Below, piece by piece: positions 29,961-46,666 of a DNA stretch of 64,000 bases. The DNA comes from a virus (Duplodnaviria > Heunggongvirae > Uroviricota > Caudoviricetes), in IMG/VR virus record IMGVR_UViG_2595698353_000001, positions 14,564 through 78,563 of that record; one strand, written 5' to 3'. The translations under genes and the position numbers were made by a program. The first letter of the stretch is position 1, and every line of letters starts with the position of its first letter. The notes under the pieces were generated by a model. That model ran no database searches, was not told the origin of the DNA, and worked only from the letters and a program-made list of their open reading frames with translations.

Positions 29961-30017
29961 CCGCGTGCGTCCCGCATCAATAGGTGGTTCAACCACTTCG
30001 ACGTCGGGAGCACGCGG
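29961..30017 (+). promoter_or_regulatory. putative late promoter GCATCAATAGG (29974-84) inside RBS/start-occluding hairpin
   Basis: CCGCGTGC-G-TCCCG(29961-74) pairs with CGGGA-GCACGCGG(30005-17), which holds the RBS and first base of GTG. Confidence 0.65.
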
Positions 30018-31492
30018 TGCGCAGTTACTACGTACGCAACCTGACCGCCAGCGCGGTCACCATCAATGACGGCAGCCAGGAGATCCTCGCGCTCGAGGGC
30101 CAGGGCAGCCGCTGGGATCGCGACCCCGTGCCGCTGTACGTGCTCGACCGCCCGGACTTCCAGAGGCTCTGGGCCGCAGGCAAGGTCGCGGTGTATTCGG
30201 ATGCCGGGTACAGCCAGCTGCTCACGCGCCCGACGTCCGGGACCGTCATCGAGGCCGTGCGGGACGCCTCGATGGCCGACCGACTCATCGATGCGCGCTC
30301 CGGCGCGCTGACCGTCTTCCTGGGCGACTCGATCACACAGAACCTCAACACCCTGACCAACCCCGACCAGCCGCTCCTGGGCGAGTCCTTCGCCACGCTC
30401 TGCGCGATCAAGTCCGGCCAGCGGGTGCTGTACGGCCGCAACGCGGGCGTCACGAACAACACGGTGCAGGACGCCGCTGCCCGGCTGAGCGCGGACGTGA
30501 TCGCCTACCGCCCCGACCGCTGCGTGGTCCTGCTCGGCACCAACAACACCAACCAGCCGACGCCGACCATCCCCGACACGATGACGGCGTACGAGGAAGG
30601 CATTCTTCGTCCGCTGCTGGACGCGGGAATCGAGCCGATCGTCTGCACCGTCCCGCCGCGCAACGGCGTGCGCGCCTCGGACATCGCGACGTACCGCCGC
30701 CAGGGGCAGTGGAACGCCTTCCTGCGCTCGATCGCCAGTCGGTACCACCTCCGCCTCGTCGACCTCTATGCGGCGACGGTGGACCCCGCGACGGGCGACT
30801 ACAAGGCGGGCTACAGCGGCGACGGCGTGCACCCGAGCAAGGTTGGCTACCAGGCGATGTCCGATGCCTTCGTCAAGGCCGTCTCGCCGCACTATCCGGC
30901 CGAGGGCGTGCAGCTCGAGCGCGACCGGTACTCGGCCATCGGTCTCGCGCCCAACCCGGTTTTCCTGGAAGGACTGACCGGCACCGGCAACGTGCTGCCC
31001 GCCGGGTGGACGGGATCCACCACGGGCGTCACCGTCACCCTCGAGGATCCCGTGCAGGGCGACGGCCTGGAGGCGGGCAAGTGGGTCAAGATCGACAAGA
31101 CCGACACGGCGACGACGAAGAACGTCAACTGGGTCAAGTCGCTGTCGGCGCTCGGGGCCGCCGGGACTCCGGTTGCGATCGGTGATCGGATCGCATGGGG
31201 CTTCCGCTACAAGATCACAGGGAGCGGCGCGGTCGGCCAGAGCGCGTACGTCACCATTGCCCTGCGCTACACGGACTCTGGCGGCGCGAACGCTCGAATC
31301 ATCACCCCGATGAATCAGTTCGAGCTCGACAGCACGGGCGTCGTCTACTACGAGTCGGCGGTGCCGCCGGGGTGCACGGGCCTGCGCTTCGACGTCTCGT
31401 TCGCACAGACCTCCGCCCAGGAGATCTGGCTGGGCCAGATGACCGTTCGGAACCTGACCGGGCTCTCTCTTCCGCCGCAGACGCGGCCGTAG
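30017..31492 (+). CDS. SGNH/GDSL esterase with shared N-terminal module and C-terminal beta-sandwich
   Basis: Blocks FLGDSIT, NAGV, LLGTNN, DGVHP; start GTG 30017. Confidence 0.85.
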   Translation: MRSYYVRNLTASAVTINDGSQEILALEGQGSRWDRDPVPLYVLDRPDFQRLWAAGKVAVYSDAGYSQLLTRPTSGTVIEAVRDASMADRLIDARSGALTVFLGDSITQNLNTLTNPDQPLLGESFATLCAIKSGQRVLYGRNAGVTNNTVQDAAARLSADVIAYRPDRCVVLLGTNNTNQPTPTIPDTMTAYEEGILRPLLDAGIEPIVCTVPPRNGVRASDIATYRRQGQWNAFLRSIASRYHLRLVDLYAATVDPATGDYKAGYSGDGVHPSKVGYQAMSDAFVKAVSPHYPAEGVQLERDRYSAIGLAPNPVFLEGLTGTGNVLPAGWTGSTTGVTVTLEDPVQGDGLEAGKWVKIDKTDTATTKNVNWVKSLSALGAAGTPVAIGDRIAWGFRYKITGSGAVGQSAYVTIALRYTDSGGANARIITPMNQFELDSTGVVYYESAVPPGCTGLRFDVSFAQTSAQEIWLGQMTVRNLTGLSLPPQTRP

Positions 31493-31495
31493 TAG

Positions 31496-31810
31496 CGTCG
31501 GGCAGTGCCGCCGACGGTAGTCGCCGGAAGTGGTTCGTGTAGGAGGTCTCCGGGGCAGCAGTACCCGTTCGCGGGCAGCCCCACGGAAGAAGGTTTCCAG
31601 CCTTGCGCGCCCGTCTCGACACAGCAACGCCCCGGCGGCCATCCGTTCCCGCCGGGGCGTTTCTGCTACTCTGCTGAAGCGGTCGCGAGCAGATGCGCTC
31701 GGCCAGCTCCGATTCCGCCTCCCGTAGCGCTACGGGGAGCGGATGGGTGAAGCGGGCCGCCGGGTTGGAGTCCCGGGTGGCTGCGAAACGGTGCGGAGAC
31801 AGGATCTCCG
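31496..31810 (+). ncRNA. candidate structured non-coding RNA (family unknown)
   Basis: About 320 nt between convergent genes with at least six stems, a UUCG loop, a T-arm-like hairpin and a 7-nt loop/strand complement; no credible ORF. Confidence 0.3.
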
Positions 31811-31819
31811 TTAATAGAT

Positions 31820-31853
31820 GAAGGCCCCGGCAGGAGATCCCGCCGGGGCCTTC
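31820..31853. terminator. terminator-like hairpin at 3' end of the minus-strand gene
   Basis: GAAGGCCCCGGC/GCCGGGGCCTTC 12-bp stem. Confidence 0.7.
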
Positions 31854-31865
31854 TCATGTCCCGAG

Positions 31866-32759
31866 CTATCGGCGCGCCGCGATCATCTCCGGCAGCTTCG
31901 CGTTCACGGCCTGCGCGAGGTAGGTCGTGTACGCCACGCCGTTGCCATACGGCCCGCGCGCCGGGTTCGCGTACAGCGTGTGCTCGCCGAGCTTCGGGTC
32001 CAGGTAGCCGCGCAGCTCGAGCACCGCGCGCGTGATGCGGAACGGCGCGATGGCCAGCAGCGTGGCCAGCTGGTTCCGGCGGTGCGCGTCGGACAGCGCC
32101 CGCACCAGCCACGCGGTGATCGCCGGGACGGTGATCTGCCCCTTCGCGTTCAGCTCGAACTCCATCCGGTCGATGAGGTCGTTCAGGTCGCGCAGCAGCG
32201 AGTCAGGATCCGCGTTGCACATCGCGTCCGCCGGATTCACCGCCTCGAACACCGGCCGCCGGGGCACCTCGCCGGTGCCGGTCCGGTTCGCCACGCCCCA
32301 GCCAATCTTGTTCTGTACGTTGCCGATCTCGATGACCTTGCCGGGCGCGAAGTTCGACCGGGTGCGGCACGGGTTCGAGATATTGACGAAGCCGATCACG
32401 CGCCCGAACACGTCGGCGTGCTGGCCCCGGTGCATCTCCTGCATCAGCTCCCACGACACCTCGCCGCCCTGGCTGTAGCCGCCGATCATCAGGAGGCCGG
32501 GGTGCTCGCGCGCCACCTCGAGCACGCGGGCCTTGCCGATCTGGCGGCTGTCGTGGTGGCTCTCGCCGCCGAGCCCGCTGGTGCTGACCGGGCCGAACGA
32601 GGCGTCGTAGCCCGCCCACGCCCCGTGCACGCGCGGGTCGAGCTTCTGCACCAGCGCGGTGCCCATCGTGCGCGTCTCGAGCACCGTCTTGCGCTTGTCT
32701 CCCGGGTACGACTCGCCCGTCCCCGGGCTCCACACGAGCGTCACGTCCTGCGTTGCCAT
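31866..32759 (-). CDS. cutinase-like alpha/beta hydrolase (lysin B-like)
   Basis: GYSQGG nucleophile elbow, ISNPCR, NPADAMC, distal H; RBS AGGAG on minus strand. Confidence 0.75.
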   Translation of the reverse strand: MATQDVTLVWSPGTGESYPGDKRKTVLETRTMGTALVQKLDPRVHGAWAGYDASFGPVSTSGLGGESHHDSRQIGKARVLEVAREHPGLLMIGGYSQGGEVSWELMQEMHRGQHADVFGRVIGFVNISNPCRTRSNFAPGKVIEIGNVQNKIGWGVANRTGTGEVPRRPVFEAVNPADAMCNADPDSLLRDLNDLIDRMEFELNAKGQITVPAITAWLVRALSDAHRRNQLATLLAIAPFRITRAVLELRGYLDPKLGEHTLYANPARGPYGNGVAYTTYLAQAVNAKLPEMIAARR

Positions 32760-32808
32760 CTCAGTCTCCTGTCTGCAGTGGTTACCGCTTACGTCGCCGC
32801 AGCGCCGT

Positions 32809-32880
32809 CATGCCACCCCGGCGCGCGGGGCGGCATCAATTGGTGACGAATGAAAAAACCAAGCGTTGGGGTGAGGCATG
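32809..32880 (+). promoter_or_regulatory. putative late promoter GCATCAATTGG (32833-43) within RBS/ATG-occluding hairpin
   Basis: CATGC-CACCCC(32809-19) pairs with GGGGTG-AG-GCATG(32868-80). Confidence 0.5.
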
Positions 32881-33846
32881 CAGAGCTATTACGTTGAGAG
32901 CCTGGTCGCGGAGGCCATCACGCTGGATGTGCGCGGCCGCGAGGGGCTGCGGCTCGAGGGCGTCGGCGACCGGCAGCAGGTCTGGGCATACGTGGCGGAG
33001 CAGCCCGGCTTCGTCCGGCTGTGGACTCGCGGCGACATCGCCGTCTATTCGGATTCTGGGTACACCGTCCGGATCGCCACTCCGCCGAACGGCGGCGCAT
33101 CGCAGGCGGCCCGCGACGCTGACGTCATCCGGGTGATGACCGCGAACGCGCTCGCGCCCGGATGGAAGCAGCGCTGGTTCGGCGGCTCGATCCGCAACCT
33201 GGGCGCGGCAGGCGGCTATTGGCAGCCGATCTCCGACGGCGCGCATTGGCCGTTCGGGATGCCGACGGTCGTCACGACCACGATCGGGATCGAGATCAGC
33301 TACGACTTCGAGGCGGCCGGGATCGGCACCGTGATCGTGTCTCCGGACGAGACACTCTCGGTCAACGGCTGGTCCGCTGGCGCGACCGTCGAGAAGTCGA
33401 TGTGCCGAATCAAGCTGGGCCGCAAGAAGACGATCGCGGACCACATCACGTGGAACGGGACGGCCTGGACGAGCGCGGGTGGCGTGTTCACTCCGACCTG
33501 GTCCACGGCCAGCGGCGGCATGCTCGTCCTCAAGCACGAGAAGATCTTCGGCCAGGGCTACTCGGTCACGCCGCGCGGGTACGACGTGGAGGCCGTGATC
33601 GCGACGGCGGGTGCATCGGATCCCGCGACCGAGACCCGGATCCAGCTGCACACCCGGGCCACCGGCGCGCAGATCGCAACCACGGCGGAGATCCCGGCCA
33701 ACACCCGGGTCTACGTCTCGCGGACGGATGCGGTCCCCGCCCTCGGCGGGGCGATCAACCCGCAGTCGGCCCCGGACCAGACCGAGCTGCCGGACAGCAA
33801 CATCTGGATCCTCGGCGTGCACCACACGGGACCGCGTCCGTCCTGA
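32878..33846 (+). CDS. putative virion appendage / receptor-binding protein with shared N-terminal module
   Basis: N-terminal 65 aa align with 30017, 42689 and 46121; beta-rich C-terminus. Confidence 0.7.
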   Translation: MQSYYVESLVAEAITLDVRGREGLRLEGVGDRQQVWAYVAEQPGFVRLWTRGDIAVYSDSGYTVRIATPPNGGASQAARDADVIRVMTANALAPGWKQRWFGGSIRNLGAAGGYWQPISDGAHWPFGMPTVVTTTIGIEISYDFEAAGIGTVIVSPDETLSVNGWSAGATVEKSMCRIKLGRKKTIADHITWNGTAWTSAGGVFTPTWSTASGGMLVLKHEKIFGQGYSVTPRGYDVEAVIATAGASDPATETRIQLHTRATGAQIATTAEIPANTRVYVSRTDAVPALGGAINPQSAPDQTELPDSNIWILGVHHTGPRPS

Positions 33847-33858
33847 CCGAGGTGGGGA

Positions 33859-33886
33859 GGGGCGGACGTCATGCCACGTCCGCCCC
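33859..33886 (+). terminator. hairpin (terminator-like) before the 33893 promoter motif
   Basis: GGGGCGGACGT/ACGTCCGCCCC 11-bp stem; no U tract. Confidence 0.45.
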
Positions 33887-33892
33887 CGAACC

Positions 33893-33913
33893 GCATCAAT
33901 TGGCAGACCAACC
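33893..33913 (+). promoter_or_regulatory. putative late promoter GCATCAATTGGCAGACCAACC
   Basis: 19/21 identical to 51073-51093 upstream of the sheath gene. Confidence 0.6.
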
Positions 33914-33925
33914 AGGAGGTGACCA

Positions 33926-34759
33926 GTGGCGCGCGTACAGGCCACCGCCTACGCCTTCGACCCCAAGGCGCGGACGATCACGCTGACCGAGGCGATCCCC
34001 CTCGACCAGATGACGTCCATCCGCAACCTCACCACCGGTGATGTCCTCTTCCTCGCGGAGGACTACGTCTCGTCGCCGAGCTCGTTCCACATCGAGGGCA
34101 ACGTCATCTACCTGCCGACGATGTCGAGCAAGTGTCAGTACACCGACCGGCTCGAGGTCCTGTGGGAGACCGACGGCCCGATCCCGAGCAACCCGAACTC
34201 GTGGACGAGCTATGCGCCGCTGTGGAATCCGTCGTTCGTCGGCCGAGTCACGATGCAGCGGCTGCGCATCGCCGACGGCAAGGGCCGCGAGGGCCACGTG
34301 CTCACGTCCGACGACGCGGGCAACGCACGGTGGGCACCGGTCGGCGGGGCCGACCTCGATGATCTCGAGGAGCGGCTGGACGACCTCGAGGCGACTCGGG
34401 CACCGACCGCCAGCCCGACCTTCTCCGGCATGGCGTCGATGGCCGACGCCCGCGTATCCGGCAACCTCGTCGCGACCTCGCTCTCGATCCCGACGCCGGG
34501 GATGGGGCAGGGGCGCGTGCTGACGTCCGACATGTTCGGCAACGCCTCGTGGGAGACGCCGTCGGGCAACACCTATCGGTACGACCAGGTGTCACCTGCG
34601 TCGAGCTGGCCGATCTATCACTCCCTGGGCCGCGAGCCCGTGGATGTCGCGGTGTGGGTCGGGGGCCGCCGCGTGTATTGCGACGTCGAGGTGGTTGACA
34701 CCTCGCTCGTCGTCCTGACCTTCGCTGACCCGACCGCCGGGTACGCGACCCTCACGTAA
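33926..34759 (+). CDS. fibre/minor tail protein
   Basis: Two G.VLTSD..GNA.W shaft repeats; N-terminal module shared with 43169. Confidence 0.75.
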   Translation: MARVQATAYAFDPKARTITLTEAIPLDQMTSIRNLTTGDVLFLAEDYVSSPSSFHIEGNVIYLPTMSSKCQYTDRLEVLWETDGPIPSNPNSWTSYAPLWNPSFVGRVTMQRLRIADGKGREGHVLTSDDAGNARWAPVGGADLDDLEERLDDLEATRAPTASPTFSGMASMADARVSGNLVATSLSIPTPGMGQGRVLTSDMFGNASWETPSGNTYRYDQVSPASSWPIYHSLGREPVDVAVWVGGRRVYCDVEVVDTSLVVLTFADPTAGYATLT

Positions 34760-34765
34760 GGAGCC

Positions 34766-35566
34766 GTGGTGGCCACTCAATTCCTCAATGGCATCGACGT
34801 CACGAATCAGCGGATTCAGAACGTCGGCAGCCCGAGTCAGGCGACGGACGCCGTCACCAAGTCGTACGTCGACGCCCAGATTCGCGGCCTGCGCTGGGAG
34901 ATGCCCGCGCGCGTCGCGCCGACCGGCAACATCACCATCTCGAGCCCGGGCGGCACCATCGACACCGTCACGATGGCGTCCGGCGACCGCGTGCTGCTCA
35001 TGTTCCAGACGGCCGGTGCCGAGAACGGCGTCTACGTCTGGAACGGCGCAGCGGTGCCGCTGACCCGCGCGGCCGACGCGAATGCGCAGGGCGATCTCGA
35101 TGCGGGCACCACGCTGACCGTCACCGAGGGCACCGTCTACGGCGGCAAGGTCTTTCACGTCATCTCGCCCGCCACCGGCCCGATCGGCACCACGGCGACC
35201 GTGTGGGGCCAGCTTGGCGGCAGCTCGGTCTCGTACGTCAACGGCGCTGGTCTGGACCTGACCGGCACCACGTTCTCGGTGAAGACCAAGGTGGGCGGCG
35301 GCGTCATCGCCGACGGCACCGGCGTGTACATCGACACCACGAAGTTCGCGCGGATCTTCTCGGCGAACGTCGGCGACGGCACGGCCACCACGGTCACCCT
35401 GACGCACAACTTCGCGACGTACGACGTCGGCGTCACGGTCTTCACCGCGAGCGGCCAGCGGCCGGACGTGATGCCGGACATCACCCGACCGAGCGTCAAC
35501 ACCGTGGCGCTGACGTTTGCCACTGCGCCGACCTCCGGCGCGTACCGCGCGCTGGTTGTGGGGTAG
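34766..35566 (+). CDS. fibre/minor tail protein
   Basis: PSQATDAVTKSYVD; GDRVLL..Q...ENGVYV; GAGL.L.GTTFSV; C-terminal THN...DV.V.V. Confidence 0.75.
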   Translation: MVATQFLNGIDVTNQRIQNVGSPSQATDAVTKSYVDAQIRGLRWEMPARVAPTGNITISSPGGTIDTVTMASGDRVLLMFQTAGAENGVYVWNGAAVPLTRAADANAQGDLDAGTTLTVTEGTVYGGKVFHVISPATGPIGTTATVWGQLGGSSVSYVNGAGLDLTGTTFSVKTKVGGGVIADGTGVYIDTTKFARIFSANVGDGTATTVTLTHNFATYDVGVTVFTASGQRPDVMPDITRPSVNTVALTFATAPTSGAYRALVVG

Positions 35567-35569
35567 CCG

Positions 35570-37060
35570 ATGGCCACTCAGCTTCTCGGTCCCTCCGCGT
35601 CCGGGCCAGACGATGCCATCACCAAGGGCTACGCCGATGCCCGGTACGCGACGCTGGCCAGCCCGACGCTGTCCGGCACGACGACCATCTCTCTGCTGAA
35701 GGTCACCGGCGGCTCGCCGGGGGCGAACAAGGTGCTGACCTCGGACGCCTCCGGCAATGCCTCCTGGGCGACGCAGCTGGTCACCTCGGTGGCCGGACGC
35801 ACCGGCGCGGTGGTGATCAGCCAGGGCGACGTCACCAACCTGACGACCACCCTCGGCACCAAGGCGGACCTCGACGGCAACGGCAAGATCCCGCAGGCGC
35901 AGCTGCCTGCCATCGCGCTCACCGAGCACCTGGGGGCAGTCGCGTCGCAGGCCGCGATGCTCGCGCTCGTCGGGCAGCGCGGCGACTGGTGCACCCGGAC
36001 GGACACCAACACCAACTGGACGCTGATCGCCGAGCCGTCGTCCTCGCTGTCGTCGTGGCTGCAGCACACCTACCCGACCAGCCCGGTCGCCTCGGTGGCC
36101 GGACGCACCGGCGCGGTCACGCTGTCGGTGGCCGACGTATCCGGCGCGGCCCCGCTCGCCAGTCCGGTCTTTACCGGCCTGGTGACCATCACCTCCATGC
36201 TCTTCAACGCCGGGACCAAGGGCGAGGGGAAGGTGATGACCTCCGACTCGTCGGGCTGGGCGCGGTGGGACAACCCGGCAGTCACCTCGGTGGCCGGGAA
36301 GACCGGCGCGGTCGTGCTCGACTCCGAGGACATTCCAGGGCTGGTGGAGGCCATGGCCGCCAAGGCTGACCTGGTGGGCGGGAAGGTGCCCGAGGGGCAG
36401 ATTCCGGTTGCTACCGAGACAAATCTGGGCGGCATACTGCTGCCGGGCGACGGGTTCGGATGGTCTGAGCCCACCAACCCCTACATCGGGTACGCGATAC
36501 TGCAGTCTGGGCCTCCGGGCTCGGACCCCGGGATGGCGGGCCTCCCGTTCTTCTTTAACCTCTTCCAGGCATTCAGCTACTGGACCAGCGGAGACTCCAT
36601 CTCGATCGACCCTGATTACGAAGCTCCGAAGATCGTCCTCGAGGCCCTCAGTGACGATCTCCGAGGCATCATAGCCAGGGGCTACGCCGCTCTGCAGCCC
36701 ATCGACCCGGTGGTGACCTCCGGCACGCTGACCACGCCCGCACTGAAGGTCACCGGAGGCACGCCGGGGGCCGGGAAGGTCCTAACCTCGGACGCGTCCG
36801 GCAACGGCACCTGGCAGAGCTCCGCCGGTGCAGTGTCGTCGGTGGCGGGGAAGACCGGTGCGGTCACGCTCGCCAAGGCCGATGTTGGCCTGGGCAGCGT
36901 CGACAACACCGCCGACTTGGCGAAGCCGGTGTCGACGGCGCAGCAGACCGCGCTCAACGGCAAGGCCAACGCGCTCGGCATCACCACCGGCGTGTGGTCC
37001 GGCCCGTCCGCCAGCCGACCGGCGGTCGGCACCACCGGCGTCGTCTACCTGGAGTTCTGA
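35570..37060 (+). CDS. tail fibre protein with repeated shaft modules
   Basis: Four V[TS]SVAG[RK]TGAV.L repeats, three VLTSD..G..W repeats, KADVGLGSVDNTADLAKPVSTAQQTAL. Confidence 0.85.
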   Translation: MATQLLGPSASGPDDAITKGYADARYATLASPTLSGTTTISLLKVTGGSPGANKVLTSDASGNASWATQLVTSVAGRTGAVVISQGDVTNLTTTLGTKADLDGNGKIPQAQLPAIALTEHLGAVASQAAMLALVGQRGDWCTRTDTNTNWTLIAEPSSSLSSWLQHTYPTSPVASVAGRTGAVTLSVADVSGAAPLASPVFTGLVTITSMLFNAGTKGEGKVMTSDSSGWARWDNPAVTSVAGKTGAVVLDSEDIPGLVEAMAAKADLVGGKVPEGQIPVATETNLGGILLPGDGFGWSEPTNPYIGYAILQSGPPGSDPGMAGLPFFFNLFQAFSYWTSGDSISIDPDYEAPKIVLEALSDDLRGIIARGYAALQPIDPVVTSGTLTTPALKVTGGTPGAGKVLTSDASGNGTWQSSAGAVSSVAGKTGAVTLAKADVGLGSVDNTADLAKPVSTAQQTALNGKANALGITTGVWSGPSASRPAVGTTGVVYLEF

Positions 37061-37800
37061 TGGCAATCAAGGCGTGGTCCGGTGGCGCGTACCAGAATCT
37101 CTACCGGCCGACATTCTGGAATGGCGAGTATTACGAGCAGTACGCGCGCGCCACCATCTGGGACGGCAGTGCGTACCGGACCATCTGGGAGCGCCCGGCC
37201 AGCTACTACGACGGCTTCGAGCGCGCCGACGGCAGCCCCGGGGCGGACTGGTATCGGCGGGCGTACGGTGCCGCCGTCGTCCTCCCCGTCATCAGCGGCG
37301 GATCTCTCCGCGCCGCCCCGACCCAGACCAACAACCAGAACAACCAGTGCGGCGGCGTATACCTGCCGCAGACGATCTCGGACGACATGGTGGTGTCGGC
37401 GACCGTCACCCGGGCCAGCAACGGCCTGACCGGCGGGCTGCTCATCGGCTGCGACTCGACAATCTCGACCGGCGTCGCGGTGTCGTTCACGTCGGCAACG
37501 GCCCACCGGGGGATCTGGAGCATCGTCGGCAGCACCTGGGTACGCCGGGCCGACGTCGCCCTGTCCTGCGCCGTGAGCGACTACATCGCGGTGCAGCGCC
37601 TGGGCACCGTCTACTCGGTCCTCAAGGACGGCAACCAGGTGGCGTCCTGGAACGACTCCACCGGCATCGTCCCGCGCGGCGCTGCGTACCGGCGCGGCGG
37701 CTACCACGGACACTCCGACGTCAACGTCATCGGCAACGGCAACTACGGGATGACCATCGGCGACATCTCGATCTACGACTACTACCAGCTCGGCGTATAA
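37060..37800 (+). CDS. putative fibre tip / lectin-like receptor-binding protein
   Basis: TGATG coupling to fibre; Trp/Tyr-rich beta-sandwich; last of the fibre cluster. Confidence 0.65.
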   Translation: MAIKAWSGGAYQNLYRPTFWNGEYYEQYARATIWDGSAYRTIWERPASYYDGFERADGSPGADWYRRAYGAAVVLPVISGGSLRAAPTQTNNQNNQCGGVYLPQTISDDMVVSATVTRASNGLTGGLLIGCDSTISTGVAVSFTSATAHRGIWSIVGSTWVRRADVALSCAVSDYIAVQRLGTVYSVLKDGNQVASWNDSTGIVPRGAAYRRGGYHGHSDVNVIGNGNYGMTIGDISIYDYYQLGV

Positions 37801-37888
37801 AGAAGACCGGTATGTCGGGCTAGGAGATGTCCTATAGGTCACGTATAGTAGACCCACCAGTCCAAAGCCGAAGCAAAGGGGAGATCAG

Positions 37889-38559: not shown

Positions 38560-38576
38560 GCCGCAACAGGAAATCT

Positions 38577-38610
38577 AGCCCAGGTGGGTCACATCCCACC
38601 TGGGCTTTTC
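38577..38610 (+). terminator. intrinsic terminator
   Basis: AGCCCAGGTGGG/CCCACCTGGGCT 12-bp stem plus TTTC. Confidence 0.85.
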
Positions 38611-38669
38611 CTTTGACCAAAACTCCCCTACACTAGATCTTGTTAAACAACTCAGCCGAGGAGGGAAGA

Positions 38670-38990: not shown

Positions 38991-39016
38991 CACAACCTGT
39001 TGGATTGCTATAGGCT
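38987..39016 (+). promoter_or_regulatory. sigma-A-like promoter TTGACA-N18-TAGGCT
   Basis: Consensus -35, TANNNT -10; RBS AAGGAG downstream. Confidence 0.7.
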
Positions 39017-39067
39017 CTCTACAGGACAGGGGAACACGCCCCGGAATCAACACTCAAGGAGATCGCG

Positions 39068-39397
39068 ATGAGCAAGTTCGATAGCGCCCGCGACGAGGTG
39101 CTGCACGCCCTCACCACCAACGGCTGGGGAGTGGACGGCGGCGACGTCGAGGCCCCCAGCAACTGGTTCGCCTCCGTCACCATCTCGGAAGACGACGTCG
39201 CCAACCTCGACAGCGTCGACCGGGAGCTCGTCGAGTCGCTCGACGTCGACCCGCAGACCCTGGTCGGGTACTTCTTCGTCCAGGAGACGGACCAGGGCTT
39301 CGTGTACGTCCAGAAGTTCGAGACGCCGGAGGAACTCTCCACGCTCTACCAGGCCAAGTCCGCCGACTACCTCGACTGGGTCGAGGTGTCTGCCTGA
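39068..39397 (+). CDS. hypothetical protein (island 2)
   Basis: AAGGAG RBS; GDVEAPSNWF...ETDQGFVYV. Confidence 0.8.
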   Translation: MSKFDSARDEVLHALTTNGWGVDGGDVEAPSNWFASVTISEDDVANLDSVDRELVESLDVDPQTLVGYFFVQETDQGFVYVQKFETPEELSTLYQAKSADYLDWVEVSA

Positions 39398-39603
39398 TGG
39401 CACTCACACGGCGTGAGGCCGCCATCATCGGCGCGTACACCGGCGTCAACATGAAGGACTTCGGCGACATCGTCGCCTACGCCGAGGAGCTGACCGGCGA
39501 GTCGCTCTCGACGATCGCTTTCGCGCTCCCGAGCTTCCAGGCCCGGCTGGCCGAGCTGGCCAAGCCCGACTTCCTCGCCATCGGCGACGCCATCACCGAC
39601 TGA
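39397..39603 (+). CDS. hypothetical protein (island 2)
   Basis: TGATG coupling; AAIIGAYTG. Confidence 0.7.
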   Translation: MALTRREAAIIGAYTGVNMKDFGDIVAYAEELTGESLSTIAFALPSFQARLAELAKPDFLAIGDAITD

Positions 39604-39629
39604 TCACCCCAACCACTCAAGGAGCCCTC

Positions 39630-40034
39630 ATGACCAAGCCCGCTACCATCGCTGACCTGTCGAACCCGCACCCGTTCTTCGACGACTACCGCCTCTCGGA
39701 GATCGGCACGATCGACGTCGGCGAGCTCCTCGACCGCACCGGCCCGCTCGAGGCGTGGGCCGCCTTCGCTAAGGCCATCGAGAAGTCCGGCGGCAAGGTG
39801 GCCACCACCTACTCGGGGAGCACCAGCGTCCGCGTGAGCGTCGCGCCGGACGAGAACCGCCAGCAGGACAACCTGCGCCGCGCCCAGGCCCACTGGGCCG
39901 AGCTCGAACGGATCTACGACACCTGCGTCGCCAACGCCACCGAGCCGGAGGACTGGCGCAAGGACGACCTACTCCGCTGGATCGACCTCGAGGGCGTCAG
40001 CGTCCCGTGGGAGACCAGCGCCGCCGCAGCCTGA
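39630..40034 (+). CDS. hypothetical protein (island 2)
   Basis: AAGGAG RBS. Confidence 0.75.
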   Translation: MTKPATIADLSNPHPFFDDYRLSEIGTIDVGELLDRTGPLEAWAAFAKAIEKSGGKVATTYSGSTSVRVSVAPDENRQQDNLRRAQAHWAELERIYDTCVANATEPEDWRKDDLLRWIDLEGVSVPWETSAAAA

Positions 40035-40060
40035 CCAACCACCACCGAAAGGAGAAGGCC

Positions 40061-40135
40061 ATGACTTGGATCTTCCGCTTCACGCCGAACTGGTTCAGCT
40101 CGATCGGCTGGCTCGAGCTCTTCGGCTCCGCCTGA
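40061..40135 (+). CDS. 24-aa aromatic microprotein MTWIFRFTPNWFSSIGWLELFGSA
   Basis: Strong RBS GAAAGGAG 6 nt before ATG; stop directly followed by a terminator. Confidence 0.6.
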   Translation: MTWIFRFTPNWFSSIGWLELFGSA

Positions 40136-40137
40136 CA

Positions 40138-40174
40138 GAAAGGCCCTCGGATCACCGTCCGGGGGCCTTCTTTC
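40138..40174 (+). terminator. intrinsic terminator
   Basis: AAGGCCCTCGGA/TCCGGGGGCCTT stem plus CTTTC. Confidence 0.8.
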
Positions 40175-40193
40175 GTGCCTCTGACCTGCTGAC

Positions 40194-40223
40194 TTGTGCG
40201 CACCCATAAGTGTCGAGTAAGCT
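40194..40223 (+). promoter_or_regulatory. early-type promoter TTGTGC-N18-TAAGCT
   Basis: Paralog of 28227 and 44381, with leader AGACGAAGCAAGCC. Confidence 0.75.
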
Positions 40224-40258
40224 AGACGAAGCAAGCCACCAACACTCAAGGAGACGCC

Positions 40259-41065
40259 ATGACGACGTTCAACCCCCTCGCCCACCTGGCCCCCGCGCAG
40301 ATCGACGAGCAGATCGCCAAGCGCGAGAGCAACATCGCCCGACTACAGGCGCAGATCGAGCAGGAGGAAGCCCTCCTCAAGCCGCTCACCGACGAGTACA
40401 AGGCGCGCGGCGGCTGGACCCGGGCCTACCTGGTCAACAACGCCGACGGCCACGTGCACAGCACCACCGGCTGCAACACCTGCCGCTGGACCACCCAGTT
40501 CCAGTGGCTGACCTCCCTCTCCGGCCAGAGCCAGGACGAGATCGTCGCCGCCGCCGGTGAGCTGGCCTGCACGGTCTGCTACCCGGACGCTCCGGTCGAG
40601 GTCACCAGCAAGCCGGGCACCCTGCGCACCGACCACCAGGTCGCCCAGGAGCAGCGGGCCAAGGAGAAGGCCGAGCGCGACGCCGAGAAGGCGTCCAAGG
40701 AGGTCCGCTCGCCCGAGACCGGCAAGATCCTGTTCAAGACCCAGCGCGCCGCCGAGATCGAGCTGGTGACCTCGCTCGCCGATCTCTCCGACGCCCTCTT
40801 CCAGCTGAACAGCCAGCCGGAGCGTGCCGGGTTCTGGGTGCAGGCGATCGACGAGCGGGAGGCCAAGGCGCGCTCCATCGCCGCCGCACTGGAGGCCAAG
40901 ACCGGCGAGAATCCGATCGAGGCATCGATCGCCAAGGCTGAGGCCAAGATCATCAAGAGCGTCAAGGACTTCAACAAGCACGACGCGGCCCGCCTGCGAC
41001 TCGACCCGGCCAGCGTCCCCGCCAAGGGCAGCATCGTCGCCCGGCTGACCGAATACCTCGGCTAA
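40259..41065 (+). CDS. Zn-binding hypothetical protein
   Basis: HVH...CNTC...CTVC.PDAP; AAGGAG RBS. Confidence 0.8.
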   Translation: MTTFNPLAHLAPAQIDEQIAKRESNIARLQAQIEQEEALLKPLTDEYKARGGWTRAYLVNNADGHVHSTTGCNTCRWTTQFQWLTSLSGQSQDEIVAAAGELACTVCYPDAPVEVTSKPGTLRTDHQVAQEQRAKEKAERDAEKASKEVRSPETGKILFKTQRAAEIELVTSLADLSDALFQLNSQPERAGFWVQAIDEREAKARSIAAALEAKTGENPIEASIAKAEAKIIKSVKDFNKHDAARLRLDPASVPAKGSIVARLTEYLG

Positions 41066-41074
41066 CCCACCACC

Positions 41075-41101
41075 GCCCCGGGCCACACGGCCCGGGGCTT
41101 T
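41075..41101 (+). terminator. intrinsic terminator
   Basis: GCCCCGGGCC/GGCCCGGGGC stem plus TTT. Confidence 0.7.
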
Positions 41102-41123
41102 CCCCTATCCCAAGGAGAGACCG

Positions 41124-41447
41124 ATGACGGTCCACCGAGACCGCAAGGCCATGCTCGACCTGATCCTCGACGAGCACCTCGAGTGCCGCATCCTCAACCA
41201 CCCGTGGCAGTGGCGCGACGTCGAGGAGGACCGGTACACCGCCACCGAGGTGGTCGCCTGCCCGCGCTGCACCAGCGAGCGGCTGCAGGACTACCGGAAG
41301 ACCGGCCGGGACAGCGGCCTGGTCACCGACACCCGCTACCGGTACGTGAAGGGCTACCTGATCGAGGGCATCGGCCACCTGACCCGCGCGGATCGTGGCT
41401 ATCTCCGCATCCGGCTGGCCGCCTACAGGAAACGCCTGCGCGCGTAG
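41124..41447 (+). CDS. hypothetical protein
   Basis: AAGGAG RBS; ECR..NH.W...CPRC. Confidence 0.75.
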   Translation: MTVHRDRKAMLDLILDEHLECRILNHPWQWRDVEEDRYTATEVVACPRCTSERLQDYRKTGRDSGLVTDTRYRYVKGYLIEGIGHLTRADRGYLRIRLAAYRKRLRA

Positions 41448-41457
41448 TCCCATCTCG

Positions 41458-41503
41458 ACTGCCTCCCGCATCAATTCGTGAAACCACGGACGCGGGAGGC
41501 AGT
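41458..41503 (+). promoter_or_regulatory. perfect 12-bp hairpin occluding the lysin RBS, with GCATCAATT motif at the loop edge
   Basis: ACTGCCTCCCGC(41458-69)/GCGGGAGGCAGT(41492-503); RBS GGGAGG in the 3' arm; TTG start at 41505. Confidence 0.75.
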
Positions 41504-41504
41504 T

Positions 41505-42617
41505 TTGGCTACCAGGCCTGTATTCACCGAGTACGACGAGACCGGAGTCTCGCCGAACCACAGTCAGCGCTGGGGCGCGCGTATCCGCCTCTTCGTGCTG
41601 CATACCCAGGAGGGGCCTGGTGACGCCCGCAGCCTCGCCCGGTACCTGCAGAACCCGTCGAGCGGCGTCTCGTACCACTACACGGGCGACAACAACACCG
41701 TGATCGACGTCGTCGACACCGACCGCGCCAGCTGGTCCGTGCTCGACGCCAACCCGTACTGCATCAACTTCTGCTTCGCCGGGTCGCGTGCCTCGCAGTC
41801 CCGCGAGGTCTGGCTGCGCGAGTACGGCAACGCCATCCGCATCGCCGCCTGGCTGTTCATCCAGGACGCGAAGAAGTACGGCTACGACAAGCGGACGATC
41901 AGCCACGACGAGATCCGCGCGGGCAAGTCCGGCGGCACCGACCACTACGGCATCACCAAGGGCATCGGCATCGGCTCGCACAGCGACTGCGGCCCGAACT
42001 TCCCGTGGGACGTCTACCAGGCCGCCATCACCGAGTTCCTGGCCTCCCCGGCACCGGCCGTCCCTGCGCTGCCCCCGATCGGCAAGATCGAGGAGCAGTA
42101 CAAGGCCACACCGTGGCTCGGCAAGAAGATCACTCGCGAGGTCGACCTGCCCTGCCCGGACGGCCGTGGCCGGTACGCCGAGTACGAGCACGGCTTCATC
42201 TACTGGACGCCGACGACCGGCGCGCGGCCGATCCCGTCCTACCTGATGGAGACCTACCGGCAGCTCGGCTTCGAGTCCGGTCCGCTCGGCTACCCGACGG
42301 CCTTCAACACGGTCCTGCCCGGTGGCGAGATCCAGGCCTTCGAGGGCGGCACGCTCTACCGCAAGGGCCACCCGGGCCAGAACGAGCAGCCCGGCTACTT
42401 CGTGAAGGGCCTGATCGGCGAGCACTGGAAGCGCGCGGGCTTCGAGAACTCGACCTACGGCTGGCCCACCTCGAACGAGGAGCCGACCGAGGACGGCGTC
42501 GGCCGCGTGCAGCGCTTCGAGCGCGGAACCCGGATCATCTGGCCCGGCCCGAACGGCACCGTCGGCGAGCGCGCGCAGGGTGCGGCCGACACCATCATCG
42601 GCGACGGCGCGCACTGA
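41505..42617 (+). CDS. lysin A: N-acetylmuramoyl-L-alanine amidase plus LGFP repeats
   Basis: FVLHTQEG, VSYHY, H.DCGPNFPW (Amidase_2); GPLGYPT and YGWPTSNE LGFP repeats; start likely TTG 41505. Confidence 0.9.
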   Translation: MATRPVFTEYDETGVSPNHSQRWGARIRLFVLHTQEGPGDARSLARYLQNPSSGVSYHYTGDNNTVIDVVDTDRASWSVLDANPYCINFCFAGSRASQSREVWLREYGNAIRIAAWLFIQDAKKYGYDKRTISHDEIRAGKSGGTDHYGITKGIGIGSHSDCGPNFPWDVYQAAITEFLASPAPAVPALPPIGKIEEQYKATPWLGKKITREVDLPCPDGRGRYAEYEHGFIYWTPTTGARPIPSYLMETYRQLGFESGPLGYPTAFNTVLPGGEIQAFEGGTLYRKGHPGQNEQPGYFVKGLIGEHWKRAGFENSTYGWPTSNEEPTEDGVGRVQRFERGTRIIWPGPNGTVGERAQGAADTIIGDGAH

Positions 42618-42688
42618 GCCGTCACCTGTAAACCCCGGTACGAGCCGCGTCAAGGTCTACCGGACCATCACGAGACCAGGAGCCTGCT

Positions 42689-43063
42689 GTGGCTATCTAC
42701 TACGTCAAGAACCTCACCGACAAGACGATCACGCTGTCCTTCGACGAGGACGTCCAGCTGCTCCAGCTGGAGCCCAAGGACAAGCCGGGCGACCGCACCT
42801 CCATCTCGGACGCGGTTGCCTCGCAGCCGGGCTTCCAGCGCCTCTGGGACGGGGGCAAGATCGCCGTCTACGCCACCAACGCGTACACGACTCCGATCAC
42901 CATCCTGAGCCCGCAGGCCGTCGGCGTCGCGACCGGCCTCGCCGGTGCCAGCGCTGCCACCCCGGCACCGACCGCCGGTGGCGGAGCGGCCCTCCCGGCC
43001 ACCCCGAAGGGCTACCTCGACATCACCGTCAACGGTGCCCCGGCGAAGATCGCGTACTACTGA
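42689..43063 (+). CDS. small virion protein with shared N-terminal module
   Basis: YYVKNL...LLQLEP...QPGFQRLW.GGKIAVY; AGGAG RBS. Confidence 0.75.
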   Translation: MAIYYVKNLTDKTITLSFDEDVQLLQLEPKDKPGDRTSISDAVASQPGFQRLWDGGKIAVYATNAYTTPITILSPQAVGVATGLAGASAATPAPTAGGGAALPATPKGYLDITVNGAPAKIAYY

Positions 43064-43084
43064 TCCGCCACGCCTAGCAGGTGC

Positions 43085-43115
43085 GCCCCCGTCCTTTTTG
43101 GACGGGGGTGTATTT
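43085..43115 (+). terminator. intrinsic terminator
   Basis: CGCCCCCGTCC/GGACGGGGGTG stem plus TATTT. Confidence 0.75.
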
Positions 43116-43130
43116 GTCTGGTCCGGCCCG

Positions 43131-43140
43131 CCTCAATAGG
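43131..43140 (+). promoter_or_regulatory. putative late promoter variant CCTCAATAGG
   Basis: Same TCAATAG core about 30 nt before RBS and start. Confidence 0.5.
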
Positions 43141-43168
43141 CAAGCCGCACAGTCAGGAGCTCCCCACC

Positions 43169-44149
43169 GTGGCCATCACCTATGTCTACGATCCGCGTGC
43201 GCGGACGATCACCTTCACCAGTCTCGGCACCTTCGTGCTCGCCCATCTGCGCTCCGTCCGCAACCGCACCCAGGGCCGCGTGCTGTACCTCGCCGGTGAC
43301 CCGGGCGCGAAGGTCGTCGGCAACGTGCTGACGCTCCCGGCGCTGTACAAGGCCACCATCGATTCGTCGACGGACGTCCTCGAGATCTCGTACGACGAGC
43401 AGTTCTGGGGCGGCACCCCGGACCCGTACGACGGCCGCATGGCCGACCTCGTGAAGCGCCCCGGCACCGCGCTGCGCGCGGCCGTCGAGGAGCTTGCTGG
43501 CAGCAGCGGCGGCTCCAGTGAGGAGCTGCAGGCCCTGACCGCCGCCGTCGCACTGAAGGCCCCGCTCGCCTCCCCGGCCTTTACGGGATCCGTCACCGCT
43601 CCGGTGATCAAGCTGACGACCGGCGCGGCGGCGGGCAGGGTGCTCACCTCGGCCGCCGACGGCACCGCCTCGTGGGCGGCCCCGGCCAGCCCCAGCGGGC
43701 TGGTGATCAACGGCGAACCGGTGGGGACGCCGCCCGCCGGAACGTCGGCGGGGGCCGGATACGGCTCAATCGCGATGGGGCACGGGGCCAAGGTGAACGT
43801 CGGCACCCGATCCGTGGTGATCGGCTACGAGGCCAGTGCCTCAAACGGACTCACCGTCGCGATCGGCCACCAGGCCAGCGCAAGCTCGAATCAGACCACG
43901 GCCCTCGGGGACTCCGCGAAGGCTTTCCATCAATACTCCACCGCGATCGGGGTCGGTGCGACCACCACGGGGGAAAATCAGCTCATGCTGGGAAGGTCCT
44001 CCACGACCGTGGTTGCCCCGAACAAGCTGCAGGTCGGCCCGGACGGCCCGATGGCGGCCACCTTCTTCACCCGCACGAACGGGGGCGGGAAGCTCGAGGT
44101 CGTCGCCAAGAGCGGCACCGACGAAATCATCATCGCCACGTTCCCGTAG
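43169..44149 (+). CDS. fibre protein with YadA-head-like repeats
   Basis: About 14-aa repeats SIAMGHGA, SVVIGYEA, TVAIGHQA, TTALGDSA, STAIGVGA; VLTS..DG.ASW shaft; N-module shared with 33926. Confidence 0.8.
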   Translation: MAITYVYDPRARTITFTSLGTFVLAHLRSVRNRTQGRVLYLAGDPGAKVVGNVLTLPALYKATIDSSTDVLEISYDEQFWGGTPDPYDGRMADLVKRPGTALRAAVEELAGSSGGSSEELQALTAAVALKAPLASPAFTGSVTAPVIKLTTGAAAGRVLTSAADGTASWAAPASPSGLVINGEPVGTPPAGTSAGAGYGSIAMGHGAKVNVGTRSVVIGYEASASNGLTVAIGHQASASSNQTTALGDSAKAFHQYSTAIGVGATTTGENQLMLGRSSTTVVAPNKLQVGPDGPMAATFFTRTNGGGKLEVVAKSGTDEIIIATFP

Positions 44150-44159
44150 AGGAGAAGTC

Positions 44160-44375
44160 ATGCAGCTCACCATCGAGATCCCCGACGCCCATCTGCCCCG
44201 GGCGCAGCGCGTCGCGTGCGCCAGCCTCGGCGGGCACGATCCCGACACCTGCCCTGACAAGGCCGACCACCTCGTGGCGTACGCGCAGAAGATGGCGGCC
44301 GACCACATCCTGTTCACCGAGCGACGGTGGGCCGAGCAGGAGGCGGCGGGGGCCGTGCAGCCGATCGGACTGTAG
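44160..44375 (+). CDS. small hypothetical protein, possible fibre chaperone
   Basis: AGGAG RBS directly after the fibre gene. Confidence 0.6.
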   Translation: MQLTIEIPDAHLPRAQRVACASLGGHDPDTCPDKADHLVAYAQKMAADHILFTERRWAEQEAAGAVQPIGL

Positions 44376-44380
44376 CCGAC

Positions 44381-44410
44381 TTGCGCTCACCAATAGGTGT
44401 CGAGTAAGCT
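44381..44410 (+). promoter_or_regulatory. early-type promoter TTGCGC-N18-TAAGCT
   Basis: Paralog of 28227 and 40194; spacer CACCAATAGGTG. Confidence 0.75.
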
Positions 44411-44450
44411 AGACACAGCAAGCCAGCAACCAACCGCTCAAGGAGCAACG

Positions 44451-45638
44451 ATGACCGAGAACACCGCCCCCCGCGTCCACTCCTCCAACCTCCCCGAGCT
44501 CGAGCTCCGTGTCGAGAAGGCCAACCGTCGCGCCGAGCGTTGCGGCATCGTCGATCGCTTCGTCCTCGACATCACCAACGAGGTCCACAAGGAGCACGAG
44601 AACGGCGAGGTCGACGTCTACTTCGAGTACTCCCTCGCGGTCCCGGCCCTGAAGTTCGCCGACTGGGAGCTCATCGCCGCGATCGTCATCGAGGAGGGCG
44701 GCACGGTCCTGCGCATCCGCGAGGGCAAGGACGAGGTCATCGCGGGCTGGACCCGCCCGGACGTCCACGACTGCGCCGCCTGCGGTGTCGCCCGCCGCCG
44801 CACCCGCTCGTACGTCGTCGCGAACGCCGTCACCGGCGAGATCGCCCAGGTCGGCTCGGACTGCCTGCAGCGATACACCGGCATCACCCTCGGCGACGTG
44901 TGGGTCCTGGACTGGTACGACGCCGAGACCCTCGCCGAGCTCGCCGAGGACGTCCGCCCGCGCGGCGAGGGCGGCCCCCGCGAGGCCCGCAGCTTCTCGG
45001 TCGACAAGCTGGTCCGCATCGCCTACGTCGTCTCCGAGGGCGGCAAGGGCTTCGTCTCCCAGAGCGCGGCCCGCGACTTCGAGAAGCGCTCGACCACCAA
45101 CGACGTCCACAACGTCCTGTTCCCGGGCCGCACCCAGCGGGCGCGTGACGAGGCCGCTGCCGCCCTGCGGGCCGCCTCGGTCCTCGACGAGTCGCTGATC
45201 GCGGAGATCCTGGCCTCGGCCGAGAGCGTCGGCGGCGAGTACGGCGAGAACCTGCGCGCCGTCACCCGCTCCACCGTGATCTCCGGCCGCTCGATCGGCC
45301 TGCTGGTCTCGGTCGTCTCCTGCTGGTTCCGCGCCACCGAGCAGAAGCGCGAGAACCGCGCCTTCGCCGAGAGCTTCGTCGGCAAGGAGAAGGAGCGCCT
45401 GCGCGGCATCAAGGCCACCGTTGCCCGGGTCCGCATCATCGAGGGCCTCTACGACTACAAGACGATCGTGACCTTCCGCAGCGAAGATGGACACTGCCTC
45501 GTCTGGTTCGCCACCGGCGACCGTGGCGAAGAGTTCGATGCGGGCAAGGAGGTCACCATCACCGGCACCGTGAAGAAGCACGAGATCTACGGCGAGAGCC
45601 TGCACCAGACGGTTCTCACCCGCTGCGTCGTCTCCTGA
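44451..45638 (+). CDS. hypothetical protein with Zn finger and C-terminal OB-fold-like domain (island 3)
   Basis: CAAC...VGSDCL; FVG..KERL...ATV...VWFATG...ITGTVKKHE.Y...QTVLTRC. Confidence 0.75.
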   Translation: MTENTAPRVHSSNLPELELRVEKANRRAERCGIVDRFVLDITNEVHKEHENGEVDVYFEYSLAVPALKFADWELIAAIVIEEGGTVLRIREGKDEVIAGWTRPDVHDCAACGVARRRTRSYVVANAVTGEIAQVGSDCLQRYTGITLGDVWVLDWYDAETLAELAEDVRPRGEGGPREARSFSVDKLVRIAYVVSEGGKGFVSQSAARDFEKRSTTNDVHNVLFPGRTQRARDEAAAALRAASVLDESLIAEILASAESVGGEYGENLRAVTRSTVISGRSIGLLVSVVSCWFRATEQKRENRAFAESFVGKEKERLRGIKATVARVRIIEGLYDYKTIVTFRSEDGHCLVWFATGDRGEEFDAGKEVTITGTVKKHEIYGESLHQTVLTRCVVS

Positions 45639-45714
45639 CGGCCCCGGCGGCCCCGGACACCCCGGGGCCGCCCCCTGATCCCCACCACAACCCAACAACT
45701 CCAGGAGGAGCACC

Positions 45715-45990
45715 ATGAGCACCAACATCACCCCCGGCACGAAGATCCACGACCTGCCCGTCACCGTCGTCTCGGTGGAACCGGCGAACCCGAAGTTCGG
45801 CGAGCCGAGCAAGCTCATCACGCTCGAGACCGAGGACGGACAGCGCCTGCTGTGGTTCCGCAAGCGCCCGGCCAAGCTGGCGCGCGGCAACAAGATCGTG
45901 CTCGCCGAGGCCTACGCCAAGGCCCAGCACGTCCTGGGCACCGTGGTGACCCAGATCAGCCTGGAGGACAACGCGCCGCTCAAGGTGTAG
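45715..45990 (+). CDS. stand-alone OB-fold-like protein, similar to C-terminus of 44451
   Basis: VTV...LITLETEDG..LLWF; AGGAGG RBS. Confidence 0.7.
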   Translation: MSTNITPGTKIHDLPVTVVSVEPANPKFGEPSKLITLETEDGQRLLWFRKRPAKLARGNKIVLAEAYAKAQHVLGTVVTQISLEDNAPLKV

Positions 45991-46004
45991 CCCCTCCACC
46001 ACCA

Positions 46005-46040
46005 GAGAACGCCCTCGCTGAACACAGCGGGGGCGTTTTC
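46005..46040 (+). terminator. intrinsic terminator
   Basis: GAACGCCCTCGCTG/CAGCGGGGGCGTTT stem-loop. Confidence 0.75.
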
Positions 46041-46120
46041 GCGTCTCGTGGTGTCGAACCCAGGGTCGGGTCGATCTCAAGACCTGTAGTGAACCTCCAC
46101 CCACAGTTCGGGAGCACACC

Positions 46121-46666
46121 ATGAGCAAGCCCGCCGCGAAGAGTCGCGCAGCCACTGTCGTCAAGCCGGAGAAGCTGACGATCTCGCAGCTGCGCACCAC
46201 GCAGGACACCCTGTTCGCGCAGAACAACGGCCCGACGATCATCACCTGCACCGTCGGCACCCTCGACTTTCAGCTCGAGCCCAAGGGGCATCCGGGCTCG
46301 ATCAGCGTCCTCCCGAAGGAGGTCGCGACCGCCCTCGGCTTCCAGAAGGTCTGGCTCAAGGGCCTGGTCACCGTGACCACGGATCCCGCGATGGAGGACG
46401 AGATCACCAACCTCGTCCTCGGCCAGAACGAGGCCGAGGCCAAGCGCACCTCCGAGATCATCGAGAGCACCGAGGAGAACTCGGCCAGCAAGGACCTGAT
46501 CGTGAAGAAGTGCCTGGAGTCCGGCGAGGCTGTCTACCAGTCGATCCGTGACGCCAAGAGCGGCATCCCGCCGCTGGCGGAGCGCTTCCAGGACCGCGCC
46601 CATGAGTGGATCGCGACTCAGGTGAGCTCGACCGAGTTCACCTTCACCAAGATCAACGGAGGCTAA
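46121..46666 (+). CDS. conserved structural protein carrying the shared module
   Basis: FQLEPKG.PG...V...GFQKVW..G.VTV; GGGAG RBS. Confidence 0.75.
   Translation: MSKPAAKSRAATVVKPEKLTISQLRTTQDTLFAQNNGPTIITCTVGTLDFQLEPKGHPGSISVLPKEVATALGFQKVWLKGLVTVTTDPAMEDEITNLVLGQNEAEAKRTSEIIESTEENSASKDLIVKKCLESGEAVYQSIRDAKSGIPPLAERFQDRAHEWIATQVSSTEFTFTKINGG

Follow-up and report, generated by a model that had tools for sequence, protein, structure and literature searches.

Modular receptor-binding proteins built on an N-terminal anchor are exemplified by gp17 of phage T7, the P22-type tailspike and the proteins of multi-tailspike phages such as CBA120 and G7C. Here we describe an arrangement of similar design in a stretch of 64,000 nucleotides (the window), with a G+C content of about 68%, which comprises bases 14,564-78,563 of the 142,563-bp virus record of the Bxz1-like myovirus Rhodococcus phage E3. 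A beta-rich module of about 70 amino acids recurs in four E3 proteins, named here after the window positions at which their genes begin: 30017, 32878 and 42689, in which the module precedes a variable C-terminal part or payload (class B), and 46121 (class A). As in modular receptor-binding proteins, a short conserved N-terminus precedes C-termini that are unrelated to one another and have enzymatic or binding roles, one genome encodes several paralogues, and phages that infect the same host appear to have traded payloads by horizontal transfer, the junction behind the E3 anchor being sharp. The E3 system differs in that PDB searches revealed no relation of the module, in sequence or fold, to the anchors of the T7 and P22 type, in that its genes occupy the head-to-neck region and are not grouped with those of the baseplate, and in that there is in addition a constant paralogue, class A, that is not a fibre. 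The E3 design fits that of established modular anchors; the domain family itself is uncharacterised. Since modular fibres with conserved anchors are already established, what is added here is a new family of domains and its occurrence among phages, and not a new mechanism.

Two further systems invite comparison. In phages ReqiPoco6 and ReqiPepy6 (GU580942), which infect the host species of E3, Rhodococcus equi, a domain resembling the 'P-SSM4 tail fiber N-terminus' is common to a set of 'tail fiber' proteins. As in E3, five 'tail fiber' genes of ReqiPoco6 have one N-terminus, two encode SGNH esterases, and one product, gp005, bears the same payload as 32878. However, the N-terminal domain of ReqiPoco6 is a different one (a BLASTP alignment of 32878 with gp005 covers the payload only), and ReqiPoco6 is a siphovirus with its fibre genes at the genome end, beside the tail fibres. 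The phi29 head fibre gp8.5 (PF11133) and the 'head fiber protein' of SEA-PHAGES annotation are likewise encoded just after the capsid gene, but the relatives of class B match only the last 45 or so residues of PF11133 (model positions 232-277) and not the capsid-binding base; PF11133 itself gave no match to the four E3 copies.

One module in four E3 proteins

All four genes are open reading frames (ORFs) in the frame with high third-position GC, with plausible ribosome-binding sites upstream. In the three N-terminal copies the module sequence starts at residue 3-4 (YYV) and in the 46121 protein near residue 30, and identity to the 30017 copy is 45% for 32878, 38% for 42689 and 25% for 46121. 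A hidden Markov model (HMM) made from the three N-terminal copies retrieved the 46121 copy at E 5e-6 when the complete genome was searched as 1,825 six-frame ORFs. When a profile of 102 module sequences was run on the ORFs of the genome, the four copies scored E 1.5e-29, 2.4e-22, 6.8e-22 and 5.9e-16, and since the best score beyond them was E 1.4, E3 has exactly four copies. The PHROG model phrog_2912 matches all four proteins (E 5.6e-5, 6.9e-4, 2.5e-5 and 9.5e-8), while phrog_2784 includes the 46121 protein as a full-length member (E 1.3e-63) and also matches the 42689 protein (E 6e-6); both are unannotated families in PHROGs, where their common domain and the relation between classes A and B are unrecorded. 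Conservation falls mostly at core-like positions of a compact module (LYV, LP..VA, GFQRLW, V.V), PGFQRLW being a conserved helix. The first-pass annotation of this DNA had proposed one module reused on these four proteins, and the profile E-values, the phrog_2912 matches and a common predicted fold bear this out; the homology of the four copies is confirmed. A fifth copy, at the superficially similar N-terminus of the 43169 protein (AITYVYDPRARTITF), was ruled out, as the 102-sequence profile did not detect it; that N-terminus belongs to a different region, which the 33926 protein has as well.

AlphaFold2 models of the 46121 protein (mean predicted local distance difference test, pLDDT, 92) and the 42689 protein (pLDDT of the module about 85) were built from separate, non-overlapping alignments, and the order of elements is identical in both: four strands, two short helices and a fifth strand. 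A Foldseek search of BFVD with the 42689 model matched the database model of 30017, with a root-mean-square deviation (rmsd) of 0.9 over 71 residues, and that of 46121 at E 8e-4; Finch gp23 and a Phabba protein were also among the matches. Two sequence profiles run against the PDB found no solved relative of the module, and Foldseek searches of the PDB with both models returned nothing at E <= 0.001. In a wide VIA-align search of solved structures the best Z scores were 4.8 and 4.3 for the two models; searches of the AFDB clusters and of the ESM Atlas, by fold and by Atlas features, gave unnamed small proteins only. The module is without a Pfam model, and for its predicted fold there is no convincing match above noise among solved structures.

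Two candidate relationships were considered, of which the first was rejected. When 1.84 billion representative proteins were searched with a profile of the module, 137 matched; 35 of them were polyubiquitins, raising the matter of a ubiquitin-like beta-grasp. These 35 matched profile positions 4-23 only, with repeats inflating the score; with the 102-sequence profile polyubiquitin drops to E 0.93, the predicted order of strands and helices differs, and no ubiquitin-like chain occurs in the fold-search lists. The polyubiquitin matches arose in the four-sequence profile search because the first hairpin of the 42689 protein (residues 3-17; 42689-42745), YYVKNLTDKTITL, resembles ubiquitin IFVKTLTGKTITL. 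The likeness is a local coincidence and implies no shared fold. The other candidates were Bacillus subtilis YqbF (PDB 2hjq) and the C-terminal domain of lambda gpFI (PDB 2lsm), both small, beta-rich and encoded right after the capsid gene, and both weakly matched in fold by the 46121 and 42689 models. The fold match to YqbF (Z 3.9, rmsd 2.5, 48 residues) is tied with those to unrelated ribosomal and GINS domains, that to gpFI (Z 2.5) stands at the level of unrelated folds, and the YqbF HMM, PF14553, has no match in the E3 genome at E 10. With the fold scores at noise level, we claim no membership of that family.

Payloads and relatives of the module

The E3 payloads are diverse. The 30017 protein matches PF13472 at 77.4 bits against a curated cut-off of 32.9 and keeps the SGNH blocks GDS at residue 103 (block I), GTNN at 174 (III) and DGVH at 269 (V); its esterase is probably active. 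The 'lipase' family phrog_6102 matches residues 94-482 (E 5.5e-96), and full-length relatives of the esterase part, annotated as 'minor tail protein' or 'esterase', are encoded among the structural genes of phages of Gordonia and Microbacterium. In the 42689 protein the module is followed by an Ala/Gly/Pro-rich linker and, in a low-confidence model, a short C-terminal beta-hairpin; an orthologue of the same length, 83% identical, is found on a 141,916-bp contig. The earlier descriptions of these two payloads, as an SGNH esterase with a beta-rich domain and an Ala-rich tail, held up. A read-through fusion of 42689 with the in-frame ORF downstream was considered and dismissed: a hairpin with a T-rich tail lies between them, the stop codon is kept in the 83%-identical relative, and the downstream ORF has its own ribosome-binding site and start codon. 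Because the hairpin and T-rich tail divide it from that ORF, 42689 is a separate gene.

The 32878 protein matches the 'tail fiber protein' family phrog_24580. Its payload (residues 82-322) is 81% identical to residues 21-261 of MacGully gp51, whose gene sits between minor tail genes of an R. equi siphovirus, and 67% identical to residues 52-291 of the 'tail fiber protein' gp005 of ReqiPoco6. In both cases (by BLASTP for gp005) homology starts at residue 80-82, just beyond the C-terminal edge of the module, and therefore one payload occurs behind three N-termini in three unrelated R. equi phages. From these alignments the border after the 32878 module reads as a clean domain-swap junction.

When the polyubiquitins are set aside, about 100 true family members are left. 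An unrooted tree of the module separates class A (n = 68) from class B (n = 34) at 100/98 support. The first-pass annotation had regarded 46121 as the ancestral core component; class A is indeed the universal single-copy paralogue, but the two classes are reciprocally monophyletic sister clades, and because the tree is unrooted the description 'ancestral' is unsupported. Class A representatives are 120-310 amino acids long and consist of a basic, Ala/Lys/Pro-rich tail of variable length, the module, a helix and a small C-terminal domain; in 46121 the basic tail is followed by the module, a helix at residues 90-117 and the C-terminal domain. Many relatives have a zinc-ribbon-like version of this last domain (CxxC...PPLCxxH), which is degenerate in E3, having lost its cysteines. 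The tails span 20-130 residues, and several begin MPRG[VI]P. Class A is single-copy in each genome and matches at least 221 phage records (actinophages). Among the genomes examined its gene always heads a gene run that ends in the sheath; in one metagenomic phage it occupies this spot without head genes nearby. In E3, the 46121 gene is overlapped by 61 nucleotides by an Ala/Glu/Lys-rich, low-complexity ORF (46606-47232) with an uncertain start and no family match.

In most of the 34 class B representatives the module stands at the extreme N-terminus, typically from residue 2-4. The C-termini include a Phage_head_fibr tip (PF11133-like) in six of the 34, GDSL domains in two, and a single instance each of collagen, PTR and DUF5907; some match the PHROGs families named 'minor tail', 'tail fiber' and 'head fiber'; the collagen and fibre-tip payloads imply virion fibres. 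Class B genes lie a short distance downstream of the cement and capsid genes. Copy number varies between genomes: E3 has four modules (one of class A, three of class B), there are two each in Finch (gp23 and gp35), Nappy (gp116 and gp120), Myrna (gp110 and gp115) and a 150-kb IMG/VR contig that is 97% complete, and Phrappuccino has class A alone. The class B gene of the cluster C mycobacteriophages (Nappy gp116) is found in 207 records. The E3 class B modules fall within one well-supported subclade of eight but are not each other's nearest relatives, and the duplications therefore predate E3. A search for related loci with a narrower class B alignment gave three. On a Logan contig (L014, 2447-5882) two class B genes stand in tandem, encoding proteins of 599 and 534 amino acids, the latter with a C-terminal GDSL domain, and are followed by an NlpC/P60 gene; this arrangement echoes the mixture of module and lysis genes in E3. 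As far as sampled, the family is confined to those Bxz1-like myoviruses in which the major capsid protein is accompanied by a PF23968 cement protein.

A proposed docking role and its alternatives

The account we favour, at a probability of roughly 0.6, treats the module as an N-terminal docking domain by which a swappable payload is held on the phage particle, in a family-wide arrangement of two classes. Class B proteins would be fibre-like, with the module at the extreme N-terminus fastening an exchangeable C-terminal payload to the particle; in E3 these payloads would be, for 30017, an SGNH esterase joined to a beta-rich domain; for 32878, a beta-rich domain for the host surface that R. equi phages exchange; and for 42689, a short tail. 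Class A would be the constant, single-copy relative, in which the module is followed by a helix and a small knob resembling a zinc ribbon; its gene opens the neck-to-sheath block, and the protein may either fill a site of the kind that class B uses or be a socket that pairs with class B modules. Comparative evidence supports the reading of the module as a plug-in anchor, on account of the domain-swap junction and the variety of payloads. The first-pass annotation had suggested such a display system, attaching interchangeable enzymes or adhesins to one virion site. Of this, the reusable N-terminal unit on varied payloads stands (about 34 representatives), as does exchange of the payload, that of 32878 being found behind other N-termini; the presence of the module proteins in the virion, their docking function and the docking site are parts that we infer.

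As to the site, we slightly favour the neck or collar over the capsid lattice, at less than even odds, since a unique vertex is invisible in an icosahedral map and the class A gene opens the neck-to-sheath block, an argument made by elimination and from gene order only. The capsid lattice is an unlikely site; that the proteins are not virion-bound at all is more doubtful, and the tail or baseplate is the least probable location of these. A bolder version, in which this previously undescribed fold forms a dedicated socket and plug in Bxz1-like actinophage myoviruses (about 200 cluster C mycobacteriophages among them), with class A placing its zinc-ribbon at the portal or neck, class B fibres attaching by like-with-like pairing and the collar thereby displaying exchangeable enzymes and adhesins and being re-armable through a change of payload, is speculative and, in our estimation, unlikely.

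Several observations weigh against a docking role, or against particular forms of it. The 7.7 Å icosahedral map of Myrna was reported to contain capsid and cement proteins only, with no extra decoration (PMC7150772); as Myrna encodes both classes, a high-occupancy site on the capsid lattice is made less likely. The basic tail and zinc-ribbon-like end of class A could, from their sequence character, point to nucleic-acid binding and not to a fibre-like role. With a best Z score of 4.8, structure offers no functional analogy. The database records seen say 'hypothetical', bar the UniProt name 'head fiber protein' on Finch gp23, a class B protein, and a literature search for virion structures of Bxz1-like phages found nothing relevant. 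Finally, a lysis-linked role of the esterase is possible, because two of the module genes lie among lysis genes and the upstream motif GCATCAAT is common to them and lysA.

These last points belong to a wider alternative, that the module acts away from the virion, directing enzymes and binding domains late in infection towards the envelope of the host or towards a factor involved in lysis or assembly, with class A as a non-structural helper in assembly or packaging that resembles lambda gpFI. The interleaving of the module genes with lysB (31866-32759, minus strand) and lysA, the occurrence of GCATCAAT before lysA too, and the other phage in which two class B genes, one with GDSL, precede an NlpC/P60 gene are all as this would have it, and so are the basic tails and zinc-ribbon-like end of class A and its post-capsid position, which resembles that of gpFI and YqbF, to which there are weak fold matches (Z 2.5-3.9). 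Yet those matches are at noise, and even at E 10 the genome gives no match to PF14553; moreover, collagen, fibre-tip and tail-fibre-repeat payloads make little sense off the particle, and the 32878 and 30017 payloads are annotated as tail proteins and found in the tail regions of other phages. We consider this alternative improbable.

It is similarly improbable that the module serves chiefly as a nucleus of oligomerisation or folding, such as a trimer base, fused to payloads that reach the particle by way of other protein parts or of separate proteins. Collagen and the tips of head fibres exist as obligate trimers, and the compactness of the module and its core-like conservation would suit a folding unit; against this, the class B module begins at residue 2-4, the usual place of virion-attachment domains, whereas fibre trimerisation normally comes from C-terminal or central parts. 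MacGully and ReqiPoco6 bear the 32878 payload without the module, and hence that payload folds without it. The idea that the similarity is a product of chance or composition, from high-GC codon bias and beta-strand-like low complexity, might draw on the shortness of the copies, the 25% identity of the 46121 copy to that of 30017, and the ubiquitin-like hairpin that attracted 35 false matches, but it is already refuted by profile values of E 1e-16 to 1e-29 against 1.4 for the next ORF, by phrog_2912 matching all four proteins, by the same predicted fold, and by about 100 homologues in other phages.

If the module is a docking unit, as we favour, it marks the point of payload exchange in a large group of actinobacteriophages, including about 200 cluster C mycobacteriophages; the core genes of these comprise class A and one class B gene, both of which continue to be annotated as hypothetical. 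Two unannotated PHROG families would gain names, the occurrence of one host-surface domain in both the myovirus E3 and R. equi siphophages would be explained, and there would be a defined fusion point for display or host-range studies with laboratory strains.

Gene order and the upstream motif

The positions of the module genes and their neighbours are collected in Table 1. On the plus strand, fibre-like, lysis and neck genes fill the roughly 23 kb that separate the capsid gene from the sheath gene; neck proteins are encoded at 47327-48253 and 48263-49273. The relatives of E3 are Bxz1-like actinophage myoviruses, namely Rhodococcus phage Finch, the cluster C mycobacteriophages and Gordonia phage Pupper. 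In a Pfam scan of the neighbours in the neck region the cement protein was the sole match; it is the counterpart of Myrna gp98, a minor capsid protein on a T=16 capsid (PMC7150772).

Table 1. Module genes and other features of the E3 window (window coordinates)
Feature	Position	Strand	Remarks
Portal	18048-20606	+	
Large protein with protease-like domain	23880-26588	+	
Cement protein	26605-27138	+	PF23968, E 1.6e-60; directly upstream of capsid gene
Major capsid protein	27159-28160	+	
GCATCAAT	29974-29981	+	35 nucleotides upstream of 30017 start codon
Class B protein 1 (30017), 491 amino acids	30017-31492	+	Module residues 1-75 (30017-30241)
SGNH/GDSL esterase of 30017 protein	residues 101-280 (30317-30856)	+	Followed by C-terminal beta-rich domain
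GCATCAAT	32833-32840	+	37 nucleotides upstream of 32878 start codon
Class B protein 2 (32878), 322 amino acids	32878-33846	+	Module residues 1-75 (32878-33102)
Payload of 32878 protein	residues 82-322 (33121-33843)	+	Beta-rich
Fibre-like protein (33926)	33926-34759	+	Directly downstream of class B protein 2
lysA	41478-42617		
Class B protein 3 (42689), 124 amino acids	42689-43063	+	Module residues 1-75 (42689-42913)
Hairpin CCCCCGTCC-TTTTT-GGACGGGGG, then T-rich tail	43086-43119	+	3' of 42689 gene
Fibre-like protein with YadA-head repeats (43169)	43169-44149	+	Directly downstream of class B protein 3
Class A protein (46121), 181 amino acids	46121-46666	+	phrog_2784; module residues 26-110 (46196-46450)
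Tail sheath	51080-52561	+	

As the first-pass annotation had noticed, two module genes, 30017 and 32878, stand directly behind the motif GCATCAAT. This sequence occurs five times in the 142.6-kb genome, always on the plus strand (window positions 11859, 29974, 32833, 33893 and 41468), and each copy lies 2-37 nucleotides upstream of an ORF start (11869, 30017, 32878, 33926 and lysA at 41478, respectively); a copy with one mismatch, GCCTCAATAGG, precedes the 43169 gene. From this placement it looks like a promoter element for this set of genes.

Since the 33926 and 43169 genes each directly follow a class B gene, a pair made of a module gene and a fibre gene occurs twice. The products of these two fibre genes have in common a second N-terminal region of about 80 amino acids that differs from the module (BLASTP E 2e-14), with the pattern Y.[FY]DP[KR]ARTIT[LF]T ... 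RN.T.G.VL[FY]LA ... NV[IL].LP, and the E3 genome has only these two copies of it. The lysin-B-like gene at 31866-32759, which matches phrog_28464 (E 2e-63) and the 'endolysin' family phrog_102 (E 1e-34), is on the minus strand, flanked by two plus-strand module genes in a structural region that is otherwise on the plus strand.

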